Assembly: GCA_963772455.1 (NCBI GenBank)
Contig: CAVYXJ010000013.1
Coordinates: forward strand, 83,163-147,162
Direction of reading: 5' to 3'
Origin: Candidatus Bathyarchaeota archaeon
GTDB lineage: Archaea; Thermoproteota; Bathyarchaeia; Bathyarchaeales; Bathycorpusculaceae
DNA: 64,000 nucleotides
Of the stretch, positions 1-26,995 are shown piece by piece; position 1 is the stretch's first letter, and the number at the start of each line of letters is the position of its first letter. The notes under the pieces are model-generated. The model had not been told where the DNA came from and did no database searches. It saw only the letters and a program-made list of their open reading frames with translations. Position numbers and translations under genes: made by a program.

Positions 1-2
1 TC

Positions 3-196
3 GGAAGCCGCATGCTCCACAAAAGGCTCAGACAGCTCGTTTTCCGGATGCGCGTACGTAAACGGAATTTTCCGCAAAGCAGGGCTTAATCTTTGCCCTT
101 GATTCCCCTAACGCGCGGGGCTCCTGCTTGGAGGTTTTATGTCATCGCTGTCGGGCTCTGCGGAAAAGCATGTGGCTTTCAAACGAAGTTGCGTTT
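3..196 (+). ncRNA. Unassigned structured RNA/ssDNA element with pseudoknot potential
   Basis: 14-bp helix 3-16/167-180 (2 G-U), helix 26-36/147-156 crossing helix 68-76/159-167, hairpins 42-46/63-67, 81-85/95-99, 105-108/117-120, 121-124/130-133, 181-185/192-196; followed by T-rich tract. Confidence 0.45.
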
Positions 197-245
197 CATC
201 AATCCCCTTTTTCATTTTTTATTATTATTAACGGAGGTGAATTAC

Positions 246-902
246 ATGAATAACAAAGTAGGAAAACTCATAAAGACAATATCAATCGATAACAAGCCAG
301 AACTTGTTCAGCATATTGAGAAACAATCGAATTTCAGCAACTACGTTCAAACACTCTTAGAGCAAGACCTTGCAAGACTTCACGCAACACAGCAACAAAA
401 ACAGACTGAAGCGAAAATAGAGCTAACAAAAGATGAATACCTCACATTCGAGCATTGTAAAAAATATTTCAGAGAATATGGCGGTATGACCTATGCAAAG
501 TACTTCCATTACTTCCCTGTGCAAATAAGCTCCGACCATCTGAATTGTTTATTGTTAGATGTTTATGATATTTGTAAAACGTATGCTCCAACAACCGCCG
601 AATACATTAAGCATATTAGAGAAAACGATGAAGACTTTGATATCTTCTACGATAAAATAAGTCGTTATTGGCAACAAGAAAATCCAATACCTGAAGACTG
701 GAAGAAAGAAATCATACCTGGAATGACATTGCATGAAGCACTTTCAAAGATTATACCTGAAGCTATCAAGCTAAAAGACAAAGATATTCCATTAACAATC
801 AAACGAATCAGCGAGATAGTGGGGTTAACCTATCAGCAAACATACACACAACTAATGCCACATATCAGACCTATTCTAAAAGAGCTACAGGTTGAAGTTT
901 AA
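246..902 (+). CDS. Hypothetical DNA-binding protein, N-terminal ribbon-helix-helix-like and C-terminal HTH-like segments
   Basis: GGAGGTGA RBS at 234-241 favours ATG 246; KTISID..PELVQHIEK..FSNYVQTLLEQDL RHH pattern; LTIKRISEIVGLTYQQTY HTH pattern. Confidence 0.6.
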   Translation: MNNKVGKLIKTISIDNKPELVQHIEKQSNFSNYVQTLLEQDLARLHATQQQKQTEAKIELTKDEYLTFEHCKKYFREYGGMTYAKYFHYFPVQISSDHLNCLLLDVYDICKTYAPTTAEYIKHIRENDEDFDIFYDKISRYWQQENPIPEDWKKEIIPGMTLHEALSKIIPEAIKLKDKDIPLTIKRISEIVGLTYQQTYTQLMPHIRPILKELQVEV

Positions 903-1720
903 TAATAATAAAAAAAAATAAACCCTTTCTTTTTTGTTAAACTAATCGAGGCAATCTTAACCTGATGTTTCCTTAACGTTAACATGAATAGTGAAGTCAG
1001 CGTTACCGCAGTAAACAGCGTTATAATTGCTAACAATGAAAACTCTGGAACAGTGGGAGTTGGCGTTGGATTGGGAGTGGGAGAAGCAGATGAAGTTTCA
1101 CCGATGGTTATTGTTTGTGTATCGCTCCAATCGCTTGTTTCACCGATAAAAGTCCATCCGCTTGGACTTGATTCAGAGTTATAGCTAATGTAGCCTATGA
1201 ATGCTTTAACTTGAAAATCAATTTGGGAGTCAGGTGGTAACGTTGGACCGAACCCATTCCATCCAGCCGATGAATAGTCTCCTTTATACGAAAAAACCGA
1301 ATACTCTGTTTTTAATTGGGCATCTTCTACCGTCAACATAGCATATTCATCATAGGGGTAATACTTCTGATGCCAGTCTTTTTCAAAATGTCCCTTCCAA
1401 TGAATCTCATAGTGAAGATAAACAGTCCTGTCCCCAATCTGTTCCTTGATTGTAAAAGGGGTGAATGGCTGATTCTTTACCGAAAGTTGAATGGTTCTTG
1501 ATTCAACATGCCGTCCAGCCTCGTTTATAACCTGTCCGTTGAAAGGGTTTACCGTTGAAGAAGGTGGAATATCATAAGAGGAGTCGATAAGGGTAACATT
1601 AAACTCAGGCACAGAGGGTTTAGGTATTGACTGAGCATATGCAGATTCAATCATTATCAGACTTGAAACTGCTAAGACAATAACAAGAAGTAACGAGAAC
1701 CCTTTGCCGATACTGCCCAT
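899..1720 (-). CDS. Secreted PEF-CTERM-type membrane-anchored surface protein (family A paralogue 1)
   Basis: Signal peptide ..AYAQSIPKPSVPEF; Pro/Thr linker PTPTVPEF + TM helix + basic tail RKH. Confidence 0.8.
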   Translation of the reverse strand: MGSIGKGFSLLLVIVLAVSSLIMIESAYAQSIPKPSVPEFNVTLIDSSYDIPPSSTVNPFNGQVINEAGRHVESRTIQLSVKNQPFTPFTIKEQIGDRTVYLHYEIHWKGHFEKDWHQKYYPYDEYAMLTVEDAQLKTEYSVFSYKGDYSSAGWNGFGPTLPPDSQIDFQVKAFIGYISYNSESSPSGWTFIGETSDWSDTQTITIGETSSASPTPNPTPTPTVPEFSLLAIITLFTAVTLTSLFMLTLRKHQVKIASISLTKKKGFIFFYYY

Positions 1721-1744
1721 ATCAAGTACTAAGAGAATAGAAGC

Positions 1745-1753
1745 GATAAAAGG
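1745..1753 (-). promoter_or_regulatory. TATA box of leaderless promoter
   Basis: CCTTTTATC on minus strand, 26 nt from ATG 1720, same spacing as other array genes. Confidence 0.55.
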
Positions 1754-2225
1754 TTTATTCCAAAAAACTATACTATTTCAATTCTCCTAATTTGATTCGC
1801 TTTGAGAGTTGTTGTACTTTTCGAGGTTGCTTCGTTGTTGGTATCGTAAATGTTGAGAAAGCTAAAAGCTGCAAATTCCATTAGAAATAGGTTTAAGATG
1901 GAAAAACTCCATTCTTTTGCTAATGTTCACCGCGTGGGTATCGTGGCAGATGAATGCTGTTTCATTGAACATGTTTGCAATTATCGAAGCTAAAATTTGA
2001 AGTAAACATTGAAACAAGGTAAAATATGCCTTAATTTTCAATTTTACAGAGAATTTTTACTCGATTTTCAACGAAAAAACATATTAAAAAGTCTGAAAAT
2101 TTAGGCAATTATACTTTTTTATACATAGATGAAAATGCAATTCGATAACATACTTTACTTATCGCAAACCTTCTTTGAAAACGACCGATCAACCACCCTC
2201 TGATCGCAACACAAAAAAAACTTAC

Positions 2226-2249
2226 TTTGTTAAAGTTAAGTTTATCAAG
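2226..2249. repeat. Imperfect palindrome, 9-bp arms with 6-bp spacer
   Basis: TTTGTTAAA-GTTAAG-TTTATCAAG (7/9 arm match); identical left arm at 933-941. Confidence 0.35.
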
Positions 2250-2281
2250 CTTTTCATTATAAATTTAGTTTATGCTTTTTC

Positions 2282-3226
2282 CTAAACGTTTGGTTTGTTT
2301 TGAGAGATGGTTTTTCGATGAGTTCTGTAAAACAGAAGATAGATAATAACTATAACTAATACGACAAATACGAATGGAACTATTAAGACAAAATTGTTGT
2401 CAGATACTTGAGAAGGCGTTGGCGTAGGGGTTTGCATCGGAGTTGGTAAAGGTTTTACTGAGGGCAAAGGCAAAAACGGTTCTGTCTTAATCAAATAAAT
2501 CCTTCCTGTTCGTGGATTATCGAATAAATTATATCCAACACCCAAAACAGCGAGTGCACCATTAGATGTTTCAATTATCGAAGAAATCTCAAGAGGAGCA
2601 GTGCCATCACCACCAGTGTAGGTCAGGTTTATTATCCATTGAGTGTTGTTATTTGAATCAGTTTTAATAAGGCTGCCTTGTTCTCCATAAACAAACCCGC
2701 TATCACTTGTTTGAACGAGAGTTGGAGCACTGCCTAAGTCTGGTACACTTGAATAATTTTGAATCCATTGGATGTTTCCTTGAGAATCTGTTTTAATTAA
2801 AGTAGGAGTGAATTCACGTGCCCCTCCGCCAATTAAAGCGGAAAACCAGCTTCCTGATAATTCATATCCTTCATCGCTTGTTTGGATAAATGTTGTTGCT
2901 CTAAAGTAACTGATGGTTTTATTCCATTGTAAATTGCCTGATGAATCAACTTTGTATAGGGTTGATGGTCTAATAGTGTACTGGTATGACCAACCCAAAT
3001 TCACGAAAACGTACCCTCCATCACTTGTTTGAATTAGGTTTGAAGTTGATTCAACATTAGTGTCGCCATAAGGACCAGAATCACCGTAATCTTTTTGCCA
3101 TTGTATAGTGGGAGCAGAAGTAAATGTGGTTGATTGGGCTTTCACGGTTGCAGGTTCAAGTGTAATTAAAGAAGTTAGGAACAACGCAACAAGAACCAAT
3201 GCAAAACTCTTGCTTTTCTTACCCAT
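2282..3226 (-). CDS. Secreted, C-terminally anchored protein with beta-propeller-like repeats
   Basis: Signal peptide; repeated IQTSDGGY / LxKxDSxGNxQW motifs; Pro/Thr linker, TM, basic tail. Confidence 0.75.
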   Translation of the reverse strand: MGKKSKSFALVLVALFLTSLITLEPATVKAQSTTFTSAPTIQWQKDYGDSGPYGDTNVESTSNLIQTSDGGYVFVNLGWSYQYTIRPSTLYKVDSSGNLQWNKTISYFRATTFIQTSDEGYELSGSWFSALIGGGAREFTPTLIKTDSQGNIQWIQNYSSVPDLGSAPTLVQTSDSGFVYGEQGSLIKTDSNNNTQWIINLTYTGGDGTAPLEISSIIETSNGALAVLGVGYNLFDNPRTGRIYLIKTEPFLPLPSVKPLPTPMQTPTPTPSQVSDNNFVLIVPFVFVVLVIVIIYLLFYRTHRKTISQNKPNV

Positions 3227-3248
3227 AGTAAGCTGATAGAACCATTTC

Positions 3249-3284
3249 AGATAAAAGACTTCTCGTTCAAGACTCTTGACTAAG
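3249..3284 (-). promoter_or_regulatory. Array promoter plus half junction motif
   Basis: CTTAGTCAAGAGTCTTGAACGAGAAGTCTTTTATCT (minus strand); 35/36 identical to 4992-5027; TATA 25 nt from ATG 3226. Confidence 0.7.
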
Positions 3285-3348
3285 CACTATTTGCGTTTTC
3301 TGTATGTATTATTTAGGCGAAGATGTCAGAGCATTCAGTAGATAAGTA

Positions 3349-4062
3349 TTAGGAATAGAAAATAACTTTGAGATATTTTTGCTCACTTTTTTTGTTCTTC
3401 AATTGCGATATAAGTGTAACAGTAATTATTGCTGCAGCAATTAGAAAAGCAACACCTATGTATAGATACAAATTATCCTTCTCCATTTGGGCAGTATAAG
3501 TTACCAAATACTCTTTAAAGTCAAAAACTTGTACGAATCCTCCATGTAGAAAAATTGCAGTATAGTAATTGCCTGATTCTGTAGCCCTAAAAGCTACTGC
3601 TCCATTCTTCCTTGCTACATTTGATGCCTCAAAATTAGTTCCATTTTTACTTGCCCATGCCGAGAAGTCAAAACTGTTATTGTTTAACTGAATAACAACT
3701 GATTTAAAGTTGGTAAATTGTTGCTCAGAAAAAATGAAGCCAGTTACGTAAATATCTGTGTCCCACTTAGCTTCTATGCCTTGTCCTGCGTGGAGAGATA
3801 TTGGTGGTAGATTGAGAAAATCAGTATTAGGTGGCTGAAATGGAGGATAATAATAGTTCCCATTTAGGTATGTGTTATTTACTGATGCTACTGGATTTGG
3901 GTAGTTTATGTTTGGAGTATCAGTTTGATAAGAACTCCTTATTGGAGCAGTATGTGGAGAAGCAAAGTTGAGAGAGATAAAAAATGCGCCCGTTAGAAGC
4001 AATATTAAGATAACTATTTTTACTATATTTCTAAGTCTGAATCTCTCTACCTTTGGCTTCAT
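3349..4062 (-). CDS. Membrane protein with two terminal TM helices and a glycosylated extracellular domain
   Basis: N- and C-terminal hydrophobic helices, several NxS/T sequons; start set at ATG 4062 by promoter spacing. Confidence 0.7.
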   Translation of the reverse strand: MKPKVERFRLRNIVKIVILILLLTGAFFISLNFASPHTAPIRSSYQTDTPNINYPNPVASVNNTYLNGNYYYPPFQPPNTDFLNLPPISLHAGQGIEAKWDTDIYVTGFIFSEQQFTNFKSVVIQLNNNSFDFSAWASKNGTNFEASNVARKNGAVAFRATESGNYYTAIFLHGGFVQVFDFKEYLVTYTAQMEKDNLYLYIGVAFLIAAAIITVTLISQLKNKKSEQKYLKVIFYS

Positions 4063-4088
4063 ATCCATATTCTGTAAGATGTTAGTCC

Positions 4089-4146
4089 ATAAAAGCCTTG
4101 CAGTAAACAATTCTTGACTGAGATTCGTAAAATTTCCTTTACTAAG
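4089..4146 (-). repeat. Full junction motif (4112-4146) plus TATA (4089-4095)
   Basis: Minus strand CTT-AGTAAAG-GAAA-TTTTACG-AATCTC-AGTCAAG-A, ungapped alignment to 5017-5051 and 7071-7105. Confidence 0.7.
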
Positions 4147-4968
4147 TTAAGTTTGTGTTTTTTGTGGTAGACCAACAAACCAGCAGATGACACCATAATA
4201 GTTCAGTAGCAGAGGAATTGTCCATAAGGGAAACTCTGGAACTGTCGGGGTGGGTGTCGATGATGTTATGGTTGGAGTTGGTGTTAAATTTGGTGAGGGT
4301 GAGGTTGAAGTGGAAGTTGGAAGAGGTTCAGGATAAATCAATGTTGGATATGGGGAATTATCAATACTGCTTGCAAAAACGTTTGCAGTATCACTTTGGT
4401 TAATTGTCACAGTAAGCGTATTGCTCCATCCACTATCTTGACCATTAATCACGGGATAGGGAAAAAGTGGTTGTATAACCCAGCTTTGGTAGCCAATCAT
4501 AGATATTACTTGAACATCAATCACTGAACCTTTAGAAAAATCTTGGTGGATAGTGAAATAGGTAAAAACAGAACTATAGTTTCTATTTAGGAAGCCCTCG
4601 TCTTCTCCGCCATAAAGATATTGCCAATATTCACCAAAGTGTCCCTTATAGCGGACATTGTAGAAGAAGTTAAGGTCACGTCTTGTACCATTGGGGTTTG
4701 TTAGTACAAACTGGTTGAAGGGTTGATTTTTGATTTTCCCTTCAATTTTTATATCGGTAATATGTCTGCTGGGAATAGTCGTTTGTTGCCCAGTATAGGG
4801 GTCTGTTTGGATTGTTGCAGTAGTATCATATGAATTATCAACCACTTGGATAGAAAACTGCGGAACAGATGGTTTAGGAATAGTTTGAGCATTGACGGAT
4901 TCTGTCAAAAATACAGAGAAGGCTAAGATAACTACAATTAGTACTGAGAAACCCTTGATACATTCCAT
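4147..4968 (-). CDS. PEF-CTERM-type surface protein (family A paralogue 2); +1 frameshift in TM anchor at ~4202
   Basis: MECIKGF..AQTIPKPSVPQF; PTPTVPEF; removing one A restores LLLTIMVSSAGLLVYHKKHKLNLVK matching its neighbour. Confidence 0.75.
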   Translation of the reverse strand: MECIKGFSVLIVVILAFSVFLTESVNAQTIPKPSVPQFSIQVVDNSYDTTATIQTDPYTGQQTTIPSRHITDIKIEGKIKNQPFNQFVLTNPNGTRRDLNFFYNVRYKGHFGEYWQYLYGGEDEGFLNRNYSSVFTYFTIHQDFSKGSVIDVQVISMIGYQSWVIQPLFPYPVINGQDSGWSNTLTVTINQSDTANVFASSIDNSPYPTLIYPEPLPTSTSTSPSPNLTPTPTITSSTPTPTVPEFPLWTIPLLLNYYGVICWFVGLPQKTQT

Positions 4969-5785
4969 GTTTAAGGTTAGGGTTGGTTTGTAGATAAAAG
5001 ACTTCTCGTACAAGACTCTTGACTAAGAGCAGTAAAACTTTCTTGACTAAGTTGTGTTTGTGTTTTTTGTGGTAGACCAACAAACCAGCTAACACCAGCG
5101 TTATTGTTAGTAGTAGCGGAATTGTCAATGAGGAAAACTCTGGAACGGTAGGAGTTGGCGTTGAATTAGGTGAGGGTGAAGTTGAAGTGGAAGTCTCAGG
5201 TATGGTTATTGTTTGTGTTTTACTCCAACCACTTGCTTCACCTGTAAAAACCCAAGGAGCCAAAGGTAGTTGCTGGTCTCTGAAGGAATTGCCTATCAAC
5301 GCTTCAACTTGAAAATCTGCTTGACTGCCTGAAGGAATACTCAAAATTCTTAGACTCGAATGCAAAGACTCTGCTCCCGACAAAGCGAATGAAATGATGG
5401 TACTTTGATTTCCTGAATCTTGACTTGGATATGCATCAGGACTAAAAAGCTCCTGCCAATCGGTTGAAGAATGTTCCTTCCAGCGAACATTATAGAAAAA
5501 TCCAATTCCAAAGGTATCATCAACATAAGGTTGATTCTTAATAATTATCTTTACGGCACTATATTCCATATGATATCCATTATCATTAGCTTCAAACAGT
5601 CCAGTGCTGGGATTAAGAGAGTAAGTTGGTGGTTTGTCAAAAGATGGACCTATTAACTCTAAGGTGAATTGCGGAACAGATGGTTTTGGTATTGTTTGAG
5701 CATTTACAGATTCAACCATCAGTAGACTTAGACTTGAGATAGCCATTGTTAAAATCAGAACTATTGCTAAATTCTTGCTATTCAT
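4874..5785 (-). CDS. PEF-CTERM-type surface protein (family A paralogue 3); reads through junction motif into the next gene
   Basis: AQTIPKPSVPQF..GEASGWSKTQTITIPE..PTPTVPEF, TM, HKKHKHNLVKKV; no stop until 4874. Confidence 0.75.
   Translation of the reverse strand: MNSKNLAIVLILTMAISSLSLLMVESVNAQTIPKPSVPQFTLELIGPSFDKPPTYSLNPSTGLFEANDNGYHMEYSAVKIIIKNQPYVDDTFGIGFFYNVRWKEHSSTDWQELFSPDAYPSQDSGNQSTIISFALSGAESLHSSLRILSIPSGSQADFQVEALIGNSFRDQQLPLAPWVFTGEASGWSKTQTITIPETSTSTSPSPNSTPTPTVPEFSSLTIPLLLTITLVLAGLLVYHKKHKHNLVKKVLLLLVKSLVREVFYLQTNPNLKHGMYQGFLSTNCSYLSLLCIFDRIRQCSNYS
4992..5051 (-). repeat. Full junction motif (5017-5051) plus BRE/TATA promoter
   Basis: Minus strand CTT-AGTCAAG-AAAG-TTTTACT-GCTCTT-AGTCAAG-A then GTCTTGTACGAGAAGTCTTTTATCT; TATA 26 nt from ATG 4968. 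Confidence 0.75.
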
Positions 5786-7022
5786 TGGTGGTCCTTCTAT
5801 GCTTGAGGTAAACTGCAGCTAAGAGTACAGGCACAAAGAATGTTAAAATTGCCAATACTGGAAACTCTGGAACGGTAGGTGTAGCTGTTGGTGACAAGGT
5901 AGGTGTTGGTTTAGGGGTTGTTGTAGGGGTTGAGGTGGGAATCGTTGGTGCTTCAGGGTTTGGTGCAGTTAAAAAGGGTGTGAAATTGACTGTACCTAAA
6001 TTGAAATCATTCTTTTTATCATGGATTGTTTGGCTTATCATTGCTGAATTGGTTGTTCCCCACCAATTATTAGTAGCATCCACATTTTCATTAGCTTCTG
6101 GAGCTAAGTGTATGTTTTCAGAGTTTCCGTAGATATTGTTGTTATTAATGCGTGGAGTAGGGTAGGCGATTATGCCAACTGTATTGTTAACTATTGTATT
6201 CTTTAGAATAATGCTATGGCTTGCCACTATTCCTTGATAGTTATTGATGACTATGTTTTCTTCAACCCTGCAAGAAGGACCTGATTTGATCCCAACTTTG
6301 CACCCATAGACTGTATTATTAGATAGAACATAGATGTCATGAAAACTGTTGTAAATAATGCCTATTTCTCCACCAATAACCGTGTTGTTTGAAATCGTGG
6401 AGGCATCATCGTCTGTATAAATTCCCCAATTAATGTTATGAACTACATTGCCTGAAATCGTTGCTGAAGACTTAAAAATTGACATCGTATCCCATTCGCC
6501 AAATATTTCATTGTTCGTAATTATAGTTGAACTATATTGACAGCTTATGTATCCTGTTATTGTGTTGTCGTTTATTTTTGGGGATGTGCCATTAATTTTT
6601 ATCCAGATTGATTTTAATATGGAGTTTTCTATTATGGAGCCTAATTGTGTGTTTTTGTTCCAGCTTGGGCTTGGATTCATAAATTCGATATATGATGCTC
6701 TATTATCGCCACCGTTGAAATTTACTTTTTCAGTGTTGCTGCCTTTTGCATTTATTGTGCCATTTACTAATAGGTAATGGTTGTTAAGGTTTACAGTGGC
6801 TCCAGAATCAATTGTTAATGTTGCTCCTTGACTTATGGCTACAGGACCTGCAAGATTGTATGGGCTGTTTGCTTTGGTCCAAGTTGTATCTGAGTTTATT
6901 ATCATACTGTTGATGGTAGTACCGTTTTGAGCTAATCCAAAAGGTGTAGTTCCAACAATTATTAAACTCGATACAGCCATAATTAGAACAAGGAATACTG
7001 CAAAACTCTTACTTACACCCAT
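5778..7022 (-). CDS. Right-handed beta-helix (NosD/PbH1-like) PEF-CTERM surface protein
   Basis: Repeated TISNNTV/IxNN motifs, NVDATNNWWG signature, PTVPEF + TM + KHRR. Confidence 0.8.
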   Translation of the reverse strand: MGVSKSFAVFLVLIMAVSSLIIVGTTPFGLAQNGTTINSMIINSDTTWTKANSPYNLAGPVAISQGATLTIDSGATVNLNNHYLLVNGTINAKGSNTEKVNFNGGDNRASYIEFMNPSPSWNKNTQLGSIIENSILKSIWIKINGTSPKINDNTITGYISCQYSSTIITNNEIFGEWDTMSIFKSSATISGNVVHNINWGIYTDDDASTISNNTVIGGEIGIIYNSFHDIYVLSNNTVYGCKVGIKSGPSCRVEENIVINNYQGIVASHSIILKNTIVNNTVGIIAYPTPRINNNNIYGNSENIHLAPEANENVDATNNWWGTTNSAMISQTIHDKKNDFNLGTVNFTPFLTAPNPEAPTIPTSTPTTTPKPTPTLSPTATPTVPEFPVLAILTFFVPVLLAAVYLKHRRTTNE

Positions 7023-7045
7023 AGTCAACTTATAGAACTCATTTT

Positions 7046-7105
7046 AGATAAAAGACTTCTCGTAAACGTCTATTGACTAAGCCAAGTCAAGGTTTCTTAA
7101 CTAAC
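7046..7105 (-). repeat. Leading junction motif (7071-7105) plus BRE/TATA promoter
   Basis: Minus strand GTT-AGTTAAG-AAAC-CTTGACT-TGGCTT-AGTCAAT-A; perfect TTGACT-N6-AGTCAA inverted repeat; TATA 26 nt from ATG 7022. Confidence 0.75.
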
Positions 7106-7189
7106 AAAAGGTAGACCTTCCACCTCGCCGCCATTCCTATAAAGGTGCATCCGGACAACAGACACGTGTAAAACGTGGAGGTCAACAAA

Positions 7190-7471
7190 ATGATAACACA
7201 AGTTAGTTCAACAATCGAGTTAAACCCTGAATTAGCGAATTTAGCCTATGAAATGGGTTTAAATGCGTCAAAAATCTGTGAAAACGCCCTTAAATCGGCA
7301 ATAAGGTGCCTTCAAGGCGTGAACTTGAATAAGTGTTTGGTGGACGAGCCGGGATTTGAACCCGCGACCTCCACGATGCCAACGTGGCGATCATGCCAGA
7401 CTGATCTACTCGCCCAAATTTATCTGGCTTCTGAAAGTTACCCCGCCTCATTTAATAAGCGTTTCTTATAG
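7190..7471 (+). CDS. CcdA-antitoxin-like RHH ORF reading antisense through tRNA-Ala; probable int(N) fragment of an SSV-type split integrase
   Basis: TATA ~7137, GGAGGT RBS 7177-7182; ELANLAYEMGLNASKICENALKSAI; continues in frame as LVDEPGFEPATS (antisense tRNA). Confidence 0.55.
   Translation: MITQVSSTIELNPELANLAYEMGLNASKICENALKSAIRCLQGVNLNKCLVDEPGFEPATSTMPTWRSCQTDLLAQIYLASESYPASFNKRFL
7338..7415 (-). tRNA. tRNA-Ala: tRNA-Ala(GGC), CCA encoded
   Basis: Acceptor GGGCGAG/CTCGTCC with G3:U70, anticodon arm CCACG-TTGGCAT-CGTGG, GTTCAAATC T-loop. Confidence 0.95.
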
Positions 7472-7671
7472 AGCCAAGGAAACCATCAAAAAACATTGTT
7501 GGAAAAACTTAGATGTTGTATCGACTGAAAGAAGTTAACTCTAAGCAATGAATTTTATTATTGCTTTTTTTTAGGGCTTTTTCGACATTAATTCCGGTTC
7601 CAAAGGTTTATGCGGCGTAGCTTTTTATAAGGCAAACGCAAATAGAAAAGCCAAGCAAGGTGCAAAAAGTA

Positions 7672-8724
7672 ATGCCTAAAGTTAAAGTTGCATTAATCGG
7701 CGTTGGAAACTGCGCCTCATCATTCGTTCAAGGCATCCAATACTATGGAAAACTTGAGAAACCACAAGACTGTTTTGGATTACGTAACCCAGTTCTAGCA
7801 GGTTTAAGTCCCAAAGACATCCAAGTAGTCGCGGCGTTTGATGTGGATGATCGCAAAGTCGGCAAAGATCTCTCTGAAGCGATTTTCGCCACCCCAAATA
7901 ATGCACCCAAAGTTTGTGATATCGCTCCAACAGGTGTTAAAGTCAGTAAAGGTCCATTGCTCGACGGTGTTGGAGATCAAACTAAAAAAATCGTTCAAGT
8001 CAGCAAGTTACCAGATGCAGACGCTGTTAAAGTTCTTAAAGCAGCAAGCGCAGAAATCCTGATTAATTTGCTTCCAAGTGGAGCCACAAAAGCATCCCAA
8101 TGGTACGCAGAACAAGCACTTGCTGCCGGCTGCGCTTTTGTTAATGCTACACCAAACTTTATAGCAAGCGACCTTACATGGGCTAAAAAGTTTGAGGCAG
8201 CAAAGCTTCCGCTTGTAGGCGACGACTTAGTTGATCAAGTCGGATCAACTGCCCTCCACAAGACGTTGCTTAAATTGCTCTCAGATAGTGGTGTTCGAAT
8301 TGACGAAACCTATCAGCTTGATGTGGGTGGAGGAACTGAATCCGTTGATACCATGGATCGATCACGCGATGCAAAACGTACAATAAAAACTGAATCAGTG
8401 GCAGCATCAATACCTTACAAAGCCGAAATAGTCGCAGGCTCAACCGACTATGTAGATTTCCTACAGAACAAACGTGATAGTTACTTTTGGATAAGCGGTG
8501 CCTACTTCTGCAATGCACCCATGAAAATCGACCTTAAATTCCAAACTGTGGACGCACCTAACGCTGGAAGCGTTCTCTTTGATGTAGTGCGAGCAGTAAA
8601 ATTGGCCTTGAACAAGAAACTCAACGGAGCAGTAGAGTCAGTTTGCGCTTACGGATTTAAGCGTCCACCGAAAATGGTGTCGCTTGAAGTTGCAGAAAAA
8701 GAATTCGCAAAATTCATAGCTTAG
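7672..8724 (+). CDS. ino1: myo-inositol-1-phosphate synthase
   Basis: VALIGVGNCASSFVQG, VAAFDVD..KVGKDLSEAI, GDDLVDQVG, DAPNAG. Confidence 0.9.
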   Translation: MPKVKVALIGVGNCASSFVQGIQYYGKLEKPQDCFGLRNPVLAGLSPKDIQVVAAFDVDDRKVGKDLSEAIFATPNNAPKVCDIAPTGVKVSKGPLLDGVGDQTKKIVQVSKLPDADAVKVLKAASAEILINLLPSGATKASQWYAEQALAAGCAFVNATPNFIASDLTWAKKFEAAKLPLVGDDLVDQVGSTALHKTLLKLLSDSGVRIDETYQLDVGGGTESVDTMDRSRDAKRTIKTESVAASIPYKAEIVAGSTDYVDFLQNKRDSYFWISGAYFCNAPMKIDLKFQTVDAPNAGSVLFDVVRAVKLALNKKLNGAVESVCAYGFKRPPKMVSLEVAEKEFAKFIA

Positions 8725-8727
8725 ACG

Positions 8728-9849
8728 CTAAAGCTTTTCCAACGCGTCAACTATTTTCTCTTTTATCCCATTCTGTTTTAGCGTATCTTTTAGTATGTTT
8801 ATAGTCTTTACAGGTGTTGGGTCAACTCCGCGCACCACGGCTAAGTAGACGCTTATAAAATCACCGACAAGTATGGTTGAGAGCATCTTTGCCAAAGAGC
8901 TTTTGCCCTGCACTTCCAAGTCAAACATTATAAAACCCGCTTTTTCCATGATTTGCTTAGTGATTTCAATTCGACTCTCAATTTCCACCGGTTCATCGGC
9001 ATCACGGATGAATATTACTGAGAACCATTTGCACTGTTCACCCCTGCCTTCCCAACCAACAATCTCATTATGATCCAGTTCTGGGAAATATTCCCATTTG
9101 GCTGCAGATTTGCTGTTCTCGTTAAACTGCTGCTTAAACCGCTGGGCAACACCGCGGTAGAACCCAAACCCGTAAACTACGGGCGTAGATTCATCGATGT
9201 ATTGGGCAACGTTTTTTGCAAAGTTCTCATTCGTTGGCTTTTGAGGCGAGTTGTCATCACTGATTTTTTCAAGAAGACTAAACGCTTCGTTTAGCTCTTG
9301 AGTCACGCCTTTAACTAACCTTGCTTTCTCCATGTAAACCAGAAGCGGCACAAGCATATACGGCAAGGCTGCACGCGGAGGCATTCCAGCGGGAACCTGC
9401 AGGTGGGGCACTTTGTGCTTCTGAGCGTACTTGATGAGTGCGCCGCCACTGCTAATGCAGTAAATCATGCATTTGCGTTTGAGGGCATCGAGAAAGCTGC
9501 TCAGAGTTTCTTCGGTGTCGCCCGAATAACTCGTGATGAAAACCAGCGTTTTCTTGTTCGCGTACGCTGGCAACTTGTATTCTCTGCTAATCTCGATAGG
9601 TACGGTTAACTGGGTTTTTGCCCAGTCTTTAAGTAAGTCGCCGCCGATGGCTGAACCGCCCAAACCTGCCACTACAATATTGCTGGGCTTGGGGTAATCC
9701 ACAATAATTCTGTCGGCGATTTTTGCGGCTTCGCGGTAATGTTTAGAAGCGTTAACAGAAAAATTCAGCATACCGCTTTTATCGACTGCATTTATTCTTT
9801 CAACGTTATCTAAAAGCGCTGTTGGCAACTTGGGTCCTCCAAATAACAC
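8728..9849 (-). CDS. pgi: Bifunctional phosphoglucose/phosphomannose isomerase
   Basis: SIS domain GLGGSAIGGD, SYSGDTEETL, QFNENSK, PELDHNEIVG. Confidence 0.9.
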   Translation of the reverse strand: MLFGGPKLPTALLDNVERINAVDKSGMLNFSVNASKHYREAAKIADRIIVDYPKPSNIVVAGLGGSAIGGDLLKDWAKTQLTVPIEISREYKLPAYANKKTLVFITSYSGDTEETLSSFLDALKRKCMIYCISSGGALIKYAQKHKVPHLQVPAGMPPRAALPYMLVPLLVYMEKARLVKGVTQELNEAFSLLEKISDDNSPQKPTNENFAKNVAQYIDESTPVVYGFGFYRGVAQRFKQQFNENSKSAAKWEYFPELDHNEIVGWEGRGEQCKWFSVIFIRDADEPVEIESRIEITKQIMEKAGFIMFDLEVQGKSSLAKMLSTILVGDFISVYLAVVRGVDPTPVKTINILKDTLKQNGIKEKIVDALEKL

Positions 9850-25006: not shown

Positions 25007-25146
25007 GGGGTTGTAGTATAGCCAGGTAGTACGGCGGGCTCCAGAAAGCATTGATTGCTTGACCCGTATGGGGATGACGAAATTCTGGAGCGGTCTACTT
25101 TGGGGAAACCCGTTGGTCATCGGTTCAAATCCGATCAGCCCCACCA
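25007..25146 (+). tRNA. tRNA-Trp: tRNA-Trp(CCA) with 63-nt canonical (37/38) intron at 25045-25107
   Basis: GGGGTTG/CAGCCCC acceptor, CTCCAG|intron|ACCCGT, BHB with central CTCC/GGGG helix, encoded CCA. Confidence 0.92.
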
Positions 25147-26872: not shown

Positions 26873-26995
26873 GGTTTGCCGGTCAAAGGACTCGGGTTCC
26901 ACCTGATCCCATTCCGAACTCAGAAGTTAAACCGTGTTCCGTTTCCAGCTGTAGTGTGGTCTTAGGCCACGTGAACCTGGGAAAGCTGGCAACCT
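26873..26995 (+). rRNA. rrf: 5S rRNA (unlinked)
   Basis: GATCCCATTCCGAACTCAGAAGTTAA core, terminal helix GCCGG/CTGGC, TATA (TATATAT) ~25 nt upstream. Confidence 0.92.

Follow-up and report, generated by a model that had tools for sequence, protein, structure and literature searches.

What is the short repeated motif that stands between a row of surface-protein genes in this archaeal contig for, and how did these genes come to lie beside a fragment of an integrase gene? The locus is found near the left end of a 64,000-nucleotide stretch from a Candidatus Bathyarchaeota archaeon (G000:C13:83163–147162, referred to here as the window; G000 is the 2.45-Mb assembly of 24 contigs to which it belongs, and L011 is the adjoining sequence C13:63163–83162), where the six long open reading frames (ORFs) at positions 899–7028 are all read from the minus strand. 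A preliminary description of the window had proposed an integron-like array in which a tripartite motif served as a site for the recombination of self-promoted surface-protein cassettes, and had named as its alternative an operator that was duplicated together with the promoter. We now think it quite probable that the motif is the promoter operator of an envelope regulon, and that the array is the cargo of an element with an SSV-type integrase that is inserted in a tRNA-Ala gene.

The three-arm pattern AGTHAAG-N4-YTTKACK-N6-AGTCAAK has exactly three matches in the window, all on the minus strand (4113–4143, 5018–5048 and 7072–7102), and its chance expectation is 0 (100 dinucleotide-preserving shuffles of the 64-kb window). 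With no more than one mismatch allowed, the 10-mer TTAGTCAAGA occurs six times within 3274–7104, again always on the minus strand, including the half copy at 3274–3283 where a proximal dyad and core promoter are present and the distal dyad is absent. The junction motif in the array is real and far above chance, and the three full copies and one half copy originally counted are confirmed. The three arms were also present as given, although a fourth which follows the last arm had been missed (TTGTACG, GTTTACT, GTTTACG or TTGAACG), and the real unit is a module of two tandem imperfect dyads, AGTCAAG-N4-YTTKACK, with starts 24 bp apart in the three full window copies. The first and middle arms make up the upstream or distal dyad, AGTCAAG-N4-YTTKACT. 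The ideal version of this dyad, a 22-bp palindrome (TTAGTCAAGAAAGTTTGACTAA), is frequently found in perfect form at distal sites, a dyad symmetry of the kind looked for in an operator. The AGTCAAK that had been taken as the last arm is the left half of the proximal dyad, AGTCAAG-N4-YTTKACG, and the right half of this touches the transcription factor B (TFB) recognition element (BRE).

Every window copy is located at a gene boundary 5' of a minus-strand gene, as had been claimed, with the order of motif, purine-rich BRE-like stretch, CTTTTAT and ATG, in which CTTTTAT is 27 nt past the proximal arm and the ATG is at +53 to +58. The distance of ~29 nt from the start of the TATA box to the ATG suggests leaderless or very short-leader mRNAs. 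The four modules, scored with a position weight matrix (PWM) covering the proximal dyad and BRE/TATA, are as follows (window coordinates).

3250–3283, minus strand: promoter module with the proximal dyad and BRE/TATA only (PWM score 49.5, ATG at +57)
4088–4146, minus strand: promoter module with distal and proximal dyads and BRE/TATA (PWM score 28.6)
4993–5051, minus strand: promoter module with two exact TTAGTCAAGA arms, the best copy (PWM score 51.0)
7047–7105, minus strand: promoter module for the gene that opens the array, pointing away from the integrase fragment int(N) (PWM score 42.7)

The copy next to int(N) had been described as the best conserved, by analogy with the position of attI, and this does not hold as it scores 42.7 compared with 51.0 and 49.5 for two of the others. 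The last gene of the array, 899–1720, has its own TATA box and no motif (there is no PWM hit upstream of it), and the first unit consists of two overlapping genes, 5778–7022 and one that starts at 5785, which share a promoter and are not separated by a motif copy.

The motif is not confined to the array. The 2.45-Mb genome has 35 exact copies of the 10-mer, and a scan of G000 with the PWM (threshold >18 bits) returned 34 hits compared with 0 in a reversed-sequence control, distributed over 11 contigs with seven in the C13 locus and 27 on ten other contigs. Across the 34 copies the proximal consensus is TTAGTCAAGA aac.TttACGA.AA..CTTTTAT, in which the half-sites and TATA box are conserved and the spacers variable, and all keep a fixed register with the core promoter (TTAGTCAAGAaac.TttACGA.AA..CTTTTAT) with the ATG mostly at +53 to +68. 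A second dyad is found upstream of 27 of the 34 hits, in a region outside of the PWM, with a period of 24 bp in 15 cases, 35 bp in five and other distances in seven, and is missing from the remaining seven. The inverted pair of middle and last arms with a 6-bp spacer, which had been presented as the unit, therefore straddles two separate dyads whose distance varies, and the constant pair genome-wide is the dyad with a 4-bp spacer; the constant 6–8 bp overlap between inverted arms expected of a tyrosine-recombinase core site was not found.

The callable ORFs behind the G000 hits almost always have a signal-like start and often a C-terminal transmembrane (TM) anchor with a basic tail. Pfam domains found behind the motif include PQQ and Kelch propellers, NosD beta-helices, Ig-like, lectin and collagen domains, as well as a protein in which a PMT-type glycosyltransferase is joined to a propeller, and an NAD-dependent sugar epimerase; from these annotations the genes look like an envelope regulon. 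We note that two strong modules, C5:63236–63268 (minus strand) and C5:110620–110652 (plus strand), have no ATG-initiated ORF of ≥50 aa within 120 nt downstream and that near-identical sites occur in G011, the closest relative; these two may serve genes that begin with another start codon, or may produce non-coding RNAs.

This association was maintained when the comparison was expanded to other genomes using a strict 33-nt pattern (≤2 mismatches, with the backwards pattern as the control). The pattern is present in 18 of 24 other congeneric species with 0 matches to the backwards control in every genome, and outside the genus in just one of 16 genomes of the same order. Within the genus nearly every copy precedes a gene for a secreted or anchored protein, with the ATG ~57 nt further on, and in ten sampled loci from relatives a hydrophobic N-terminus was seen in every callable downstream ORF. 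Sites are scattered over the chromosome in closed genomes of relatives, and three of those in G011 are syntenic with G000 sites and identical or nearly identical in sequence. The preliminary description had suggested such a scan of relatives and had named a motif upstream of many unlinked genes as evidence against its own proposal, and this is what we find, both on the 11 contigs of G000 and dispersed throughout the genus. As the motif occurs genome-wide, 5' of genes, locked to BRE/TATA and retained at orthologous promoters, the inference of a recombination site in an integron-like capture system is not supported. It is most likely that the motif is a predicted transcription-factor binding site in surface-gene promoters, and the alternative given originally, of an operator copied along with its promoter, is backed by the register, the dispersal and the orthologous promoters.

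Copying needs to be considered in its own right, as the motif might have no function of its own and simply mark a promoter and signal-peptide "head" that has been duplicated or gene-converted among paralogous surface genes. A subgroup of ~7 promoters (C12:106291; C13:77070, 78274, 86445 and 88188; C24:876 and 2986) does have near-identical 33-nt modules, spacers included, with promoter identities of 0.73–0.85 and gene bodies at the shuffled baseline of 0.58, the genes themselves being unrelated. However, over all 231 promoter pairs the mean identity is only 0.64 compared with the same 0.58 baseline, and conservation is focused in the half-sites and TATA box; the half-sites are dyad-symmetric, and the motif is kept with different spacers in the 18 of 24 species and before non-paralogous genes such as those for the sugar epimerase and a winged helix-turn-helix regulator. 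We regard copying without function as very unlikely for the motif as a whole.

It is also highly improbable that the motif represents an extended core promoter for an alternative paralogue of TFB or of the TATA-binding protein (TBP) dedicated to envelope genes. The fixed register with BRE/TATA in all copies would suit such an arrangement, whereas the dyad symmetry, the tandem sites at 24, 35 or ~45 bp and the copies lacking a distal site are typical of dimeric regulators. We therefore return to an operator, where a dimeric DNA-binding protein would occupy each dyad, cooperatively where there are two, and where a position upstream of BRE/TATA suggests that the bound protein would activate by aiding TFB/TBP binding.

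Activation is the more likely mode judging by the position of the sites, with the tested archaeal cases showing that sites upstream of BRE/TATA activate and those over or downstream of TATA repress (PMC4706686, PMC5937170). Palindromic sites just upstream of BRE/TATA are used in this way by TFB-RF1 (PMC5937170) and TrmBL1 (PMC4706686). A repressor, in which a factor at the BRE-abutting proximal site would block TFB/TBP until a signal released it, is possible if unlikely. The right arm of the proximal dyad ends 0–2 nt from the BRE, where steric interference could occur, the BRE itself (CGAAAA or CGAGAA) does not look clearly weak beside the VRAAA consensus (PMC5937170), and negative autoregulation would be ordinary for the candidate regulator gene described below; set against these are the activating sites of the tested cases and the second dyad upstream, which fits cooperative recruitment.

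The best candidate for the regulator, which we offer as a lead, is a 312-aa multi-winged-helix protein (G000:C10:75486–76424; HTH_45 E 1.2e-8, with weaker ArsR-, MarR- and TrmB-type matches), a non-secreted product encoded behind the motif, with a tandem operator in its own promoter. Its orthologues in G011 (68% identity) and G001 (61–62%) have the same tandem operator ~118 nt before the ATG, and this is also seen at the G056 copy and at members of the paralogue group in G012, G013, G020, G022, G045, G054, G024, G053, G051, G055 and G017. This brings to at least 15, including G000, the species in which a winged-helix regulator gene has the operator before it. A search of PDB sequences with the candidate produced no match. 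We did not make use of a comparison between motif count and the presence of an operator-bearing orthologue, as the grouping was partly circular, the genomes are incomplete, and G005 and G007 were exceptions. A second paralogue group (G000:C7:401967–402890 and orthologues L060–L086) has a different conserved palindrome, ATGACGCGTGTCAT, ~75 nt before the start, which suggests that each paralogue may have its own operator and would fit a family of self-regulating DNA-binding proteins.

The closest parallels are found among the Thermococcales, where TFB-RF1/TRBM also has a clade-conserved palindrome at a conserved distance upstream of BRE/TATA and a site at the regulator's own operon (PMC5937170). 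The TFB-RF1 site is TCTGAANTTCAGA, while the site here is GTCAAG-N4-CTTGAC and usually comes as two dyads, and the regulon described here is larger (at least 30 promoters per genome) with envelope targets. TrmB and TrmBL1 with the TGM motif are global archaeal regulators with a palindromic motif whose position predicts activation (upstream) or repression (downstream) (PMC4706686, PMC4158304), compared with a candidate here which has a marginal TrmB-domain match (E 0.013), motif copies all upstream of BRE/TATA, and surface targets rather than sugar metabolism.

The second part of the question concerns how the array reached its present position. In G011 the left flank (L011:10839–12180) and the right flank (window 7323–8808) are collinear at 86–87% identity and are 243 bp apart, whereas G000 has 15,142 bp at the same place, and the tRNA-Ala site is empty in G011, G001 and G012. 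The array is part of this ~15.1-kb insertion, which is found at the 3' end of tRNA-Ala(GGC) and has a GC content of 37.5% compared with 40–42% for the flanks. The main parts of the insertion are listed here, with E2 referring to the larger element within it, which has a GC content of 37.7%.

G000:C13:80518–90545: E2, 10.0 kb from att to att (flanking 50-nt att repeats identical at 49/50 positions, empty site in relative, GC content)
Window 1–7383: right-hand 7.4 kb of E2, with the left 2.6 kb (att and int(C)) at L011:17356–20000
7190–7383, plus strand: int(N), N-terminal fragment of an SSV-type tyrosine integrase that runs into att (88% DNA identity to the integrase start at L011:17103–17405)
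7334–7383: attR, 50-nt repeat over the 3' 46 nt of tRNA-Ala (49/50 identical to C13:80518–80567)
7338–7415, minus strand: tRNA-Ala(GGC), the integration target (ARAGORN; Rfam 52.6 bits)

The int(N)-like ORF of the preliminary description is genuine. Its product shares 87.9% amino acid identity over 66 residues with the first part of an integrase whose gene is located ~10 kb to the left, in three consecutive frame pieces (L011:17197–18332) that give a tyrosine recombinase (PF00589 E 1.6e-4; PF16795 E 3.6e-4), and the 88% DNA identity between them runs over window 7082–7383 and stops inside tRNA-Ala(GGC), so that both end in a copy of the tRNA-Ala att. A weak CcdA-like match (E 0.003) had raised the possibility that this small ORF was an antitoxin, which was dropped once it proved to be the integrase N-terminus. 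The left att (L011:17356–17405) is within the int ORF and is the same as the 3' half of the tRNA-Ala, with 100% identity to the G011 tRNA. An att within the int ORF which matches a tRNA 3' half, together with a gene split into int(N) and int(C), is the signature of the SSV-type or "suicidal" integrases, where integration splits the gene in this way (PMC8371274, PMC7253208).

The order of genes in E2 is int(C), four small genes, a ribbon-helix-helix (RHH)-like gene, six surface-protein genes and int(N). To the left of it is E1, a ~5-kb remnant of the same family with four other surface-protein genes and its own int(N'), which has no left att; we infer that E1 is older than E2 and has been truncated. 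The 15.1-kb insertion would then be made up of E2 and the older E1 remnant, put in by an SSV-type integrase with att inside its own ORF. It should be noted that the int(C) of E2 is preceded by a second int(N), 88% identical, which comes from E1. Searches of the element genes against PHROGs found only the integrase and the short RHH-like match, and the element cannot be called as viral or plasmid.

At least 12 further Bathyarchaeia metagenome-assembled genomes have the same integrase family at tRNA-Ala, flanked by the same host genes; most of them have an int(N) remnant only, and the cargo beside it varies.

G002/L026: three other surface-protein genes
L035: a single surface-protein gene, which carries the operator
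G056/L031: an ATPase and small genes
L029, L030 and L032: other genes

Two further loci, L024 and L025, have the arrangement int(N')-att-int(C)...int(N)-att/tRNA seen in G000, and here the junction produces an intact ORF of 350 aa (L024:10004–11056 and L025:9971–11026), with the L024 protein matching the phrog_5127 integrase (3e-18) and a XerA model (4.9e-13). A new insertion beside a resident int(N) remnant therefore restores a full-length, chimeric integrase frame, and this has occurred in three species including G000 (L011:17197–18332), which could be a way round the "suicide" of this type of integrase. The G000 gene has two 1-bp insertions compared with L024 (L011:17655 and 17893), neither of them in a long homopolymer.

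The att repeats and the empty sites in three relatives lead us to conclude that the array is mobile-element cargo missing from close relatives. As in SSV1, pTN3, pT26-2 and TKV (PMC8371274, PMC7253208), the recombinase is of the PF16795 type and att in the int ORF is the tRNA 3' half, and as in other SSV-type elements int(N) is beside the tRNA with int(C) at the other end and there is repeated or tandem integration at one tRNA. The differences are that the host belongs to a mesophilic soil or peat genus of Bathyarchaeia, that the cargo is an array of host-regulon surface genes, and that the full-length frame is restored in three species where a resident int(N) lies before int(C). A 2021 review lists the Sulfolobales, Thermococcales, Archaeoglobales and Methanosarcinales, with no mention of Bathyarchaeota (PMC8371274).

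We can now return to the integron-like proposal, in which the motif is a tyrosine-recombinase site used for capturing, excising or reordering self-promoted surface cassettes. Bacterial integrons have an IntI integrase, an attI site and promoterless cassettes with attC at their 3' ends. The likeness lies in the short single-gene units of one orientation, beside and divergent from what is a real integrase fragment, with an imperfect inverted repeat between them; the locus also has two modules with ~88% identical ends, different contents and homology only at the junctions, and G002 and G056 hold other cargo between the same kind of ends. In contrast to integrons, every repeat precedes a gene and is fused with that gene's own promoter, and the motif is dispersed across the genome before lone genes and, in at least 15 species, before the regulator gene, with most copies on contigs other than C13, outside of which no homologue of this integrase was found in a genome with just three tyrosine-recombinase hits in total. 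Furthermore, the 6-bp-spaced inverted pair is not constant, the integrase uses the 3' half of tRNA-Ala, which has no resemblance to the motif, and its gene in G000 is frameshifted. The intact L024 homologue scores 49 bits against the XerA/integron-integrase model, where the cutoff is 220, and is not placed among the IntI-type integrases. None of the testable defining features of integrons were found, and we consider the proposal scarcely credible.

Variation within the insertion may have come about by other means. The two array modules referred to above (window 2017–7383 and L011:12409–17405) differ in the genes between their ends, which pair as window 2017–2343 with L011:12409–12737 at one end and consist of int(N) plus att at the other. 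Shared ends, different genes and likeness at junctions only suggest that promoter or junction modules may have been copied or exchanged by ordinary recombination. One further feature marks the end of the variable region away from the tRNA.

2041–2281: conserved segment, non-coding, which marks where the variable array ends on its far side (~90% identical to L011:12434–12675; no Rfam match)

The first 130 nt of this segment are 78–79% identical to segments found 4–5 kb from tRNA-Ala in G002, G023 and G056. It is conceivable, though on balance we doubt it, that the span between this ~230-bp segment and int(N)/tRNA-Ala is a hypervariable cargo bay of the integrative-element family in which junction modules are swapped by homologous recombination. 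Units in the surface-gene versions are joined by a conserved junction module made up of anchor-tail codons, operator, BRE/TATA and signal-peptide codons, and this may serve as portable homology for swapping surface genes between element and chromosome by homologous rather than site-specific recombination, with each swapped gene falling under the host envelope regulon. That the operator might also act as a target of site-specific recombination, a stronger form of this idea, is hardly believable.

Where the operator and the element are read together, cargo genes that carry the promoter of a host regulon would be expressed together with host surface proteins. Several points weigh against this combined reading. 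The choice of activator over repressor is drawn from the position of the sites, and the assignment of the regulator is weak, as no operator-bearing orthologue was found in G003, G005, G007, G014 or G015, all of which carry the motif. In the ~7-promoter subgroup, copying appears to contribute to similarity alongside selection. No third att copy was found at the left end of the insertion in a search across the contig, the 1-bp insertions in the integrase gene may represent decay to a pseudogene or assembly errors, and the comparison genomes are different species (~86% flank identity) rather than strains.

The genes of the array, with the element gene that adjoins them, are listed below.

246–902, plus strand: element gene, 218 aa, RHH-like N-terminus (sole match phrog_14312, residues 7–57, E 1.3e-5; no Pfam match)
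899–1720, minus strand: surface protein A3, 273 aa, with signal peptide, SIPKPSVPEF family, Pro/Thr-rich linker and VPEF anchor (from the translation)
2282–3226, minus strand: surface protein, 314 aa, with signal peptide, repetitive beta-rich body and C-terminal TM anchor with RKxISQNKPNV tail
3349–4068, minus strand: membrane or surface protein, 239 aa, with TM segments at the N- and C-terminus
4147–4968, minus strand: surface protein A2, 273 aa, C-terminal anchor out of frame compared with its paralogue
4874–5785, minus strand: surface protein A1, ORF reads through the downstream promoter
5778–7022, minus strand: surface protein, 414 aa, with parallel beta-helix repeats (TIGR03804 E 8e-4) and VPEF anchor, the first array gene

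These products have an N-terminal signal-like hydrophobic segment, joined in most of them by a linker rich in Pro/Thr and an anchor at the C-terminus, which bears out the earlier view of them as surface proteins. Three are paralogues of the SIPKPSVPEF family, and paralogues of the 5778–7022 protein in the neighbouring array match NosD/Beta_helix strongly. The SIPKPSVPEF-family, 239-aa and 314-aa proteins have no significant family in Pfam or NCBIfam. An exact-protein look-up for strain variation gave no record for the 314-aa protein and one 1.9-kb contig for the 414-aa protein. The end of the 246–902 gene overlaps that of the convergent surface-protein gene 899–1720 by 4 nt.

Four of the proteins (899–1720, 4147–4968, 4874–5785 and 5778–7022) end in an anchor of the form ...PTPTVPEF followed by a helix and a basic K/R/H tail, and that of 2282–3226 is a TM helix with RKxISQNKPNV and no PEF. 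The first type recalls the PEF-CTERM/archaeosortase sorting system (TIGR03024) that Haft et al. are said to have described in 2012, where a Pro/Thr-rich linker is likewise followed by V-P-E-F, a hydrophobic helix and a basic tail, although the best TIGR03024 score here is 13 bits, below the cutoff of 23, and other array members have the plain TM anchor instead. Exosortase/archaeosortase-family genes are present in the genome (PF09721, 84.5 bits at C11:89815–90327 and 46.3 bits at C10:119378–120175), and our literature search found no paper linking Bathyarchaeia with archaeosortase or PEF-CTERM.

The junctions themselves are compact. In homologues of A1 the final anchor-tail codons (...HKKHKHNLVKKV) are encoded by the distal operator of the next gene, with the TGA stop within the arm TTTGACT. 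In A1 the codon at 5033–5035 is TTA where homologues have TGA, the arm is TTTTAC, and as the stop is lost the ORF extends ~50 codons through the next promoter into the start of the next gene. The A2 anchor (window 4147–4230, minus strand) is out of frame compared with its paralogue (…LLLNYYGVICWFVGLPQKTQT vs …LLLTITLVLAGLLVYHKKHKHN) despite similar DNA, which would reflect either a decaying gene or an assembly indel. More surface-gene arrays with the same promoter module and the same conserved anchor-tail/operator junctions are found on C16 (8.5 kb), C24 (7.5 kb) and C12:103169–107220; C16 and C24 are almost wholly arrays, so that the repeated junctions probably break the assembly. Rfam matches in the whole window are limited to tRNAs and 5S rRNA (26875–26994), none of them within the junctions or the 560-bp gap of 1721–2281, and include a 137-nt tRNA match at 25007–25143 (51 bits) that was not called by ARAGORN and which probably contains an intron.

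Two known kinds of thing, a regulon operator and a suicidal-integrase element, are joined here in a little-studied lineage, and no new kind of mechanism is involved; what is of some interest is the presence of a host-regulon promoter in front of genes carried as mobile cargo. Bathyarchaeia are abundant and uncultured, and their gene regulation and cell surface are almost wholly uncharted. For this group we have a concrete cis-element, conserved in the genus and found at no fewer than 30 promoters per genome, which defines a predicted envelope regulon and names a candidate regulator, and the range of the SSV-type integrases is extended to mesophilic soil and peat Bathyarchaeia where tRNA-Ala(GGC) is a recurrent hot spot. 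Elements of this kind can carry surface genes pre-fitted with a host regulon promoter, and this offers a plausible route to rapid change of the cell surface.

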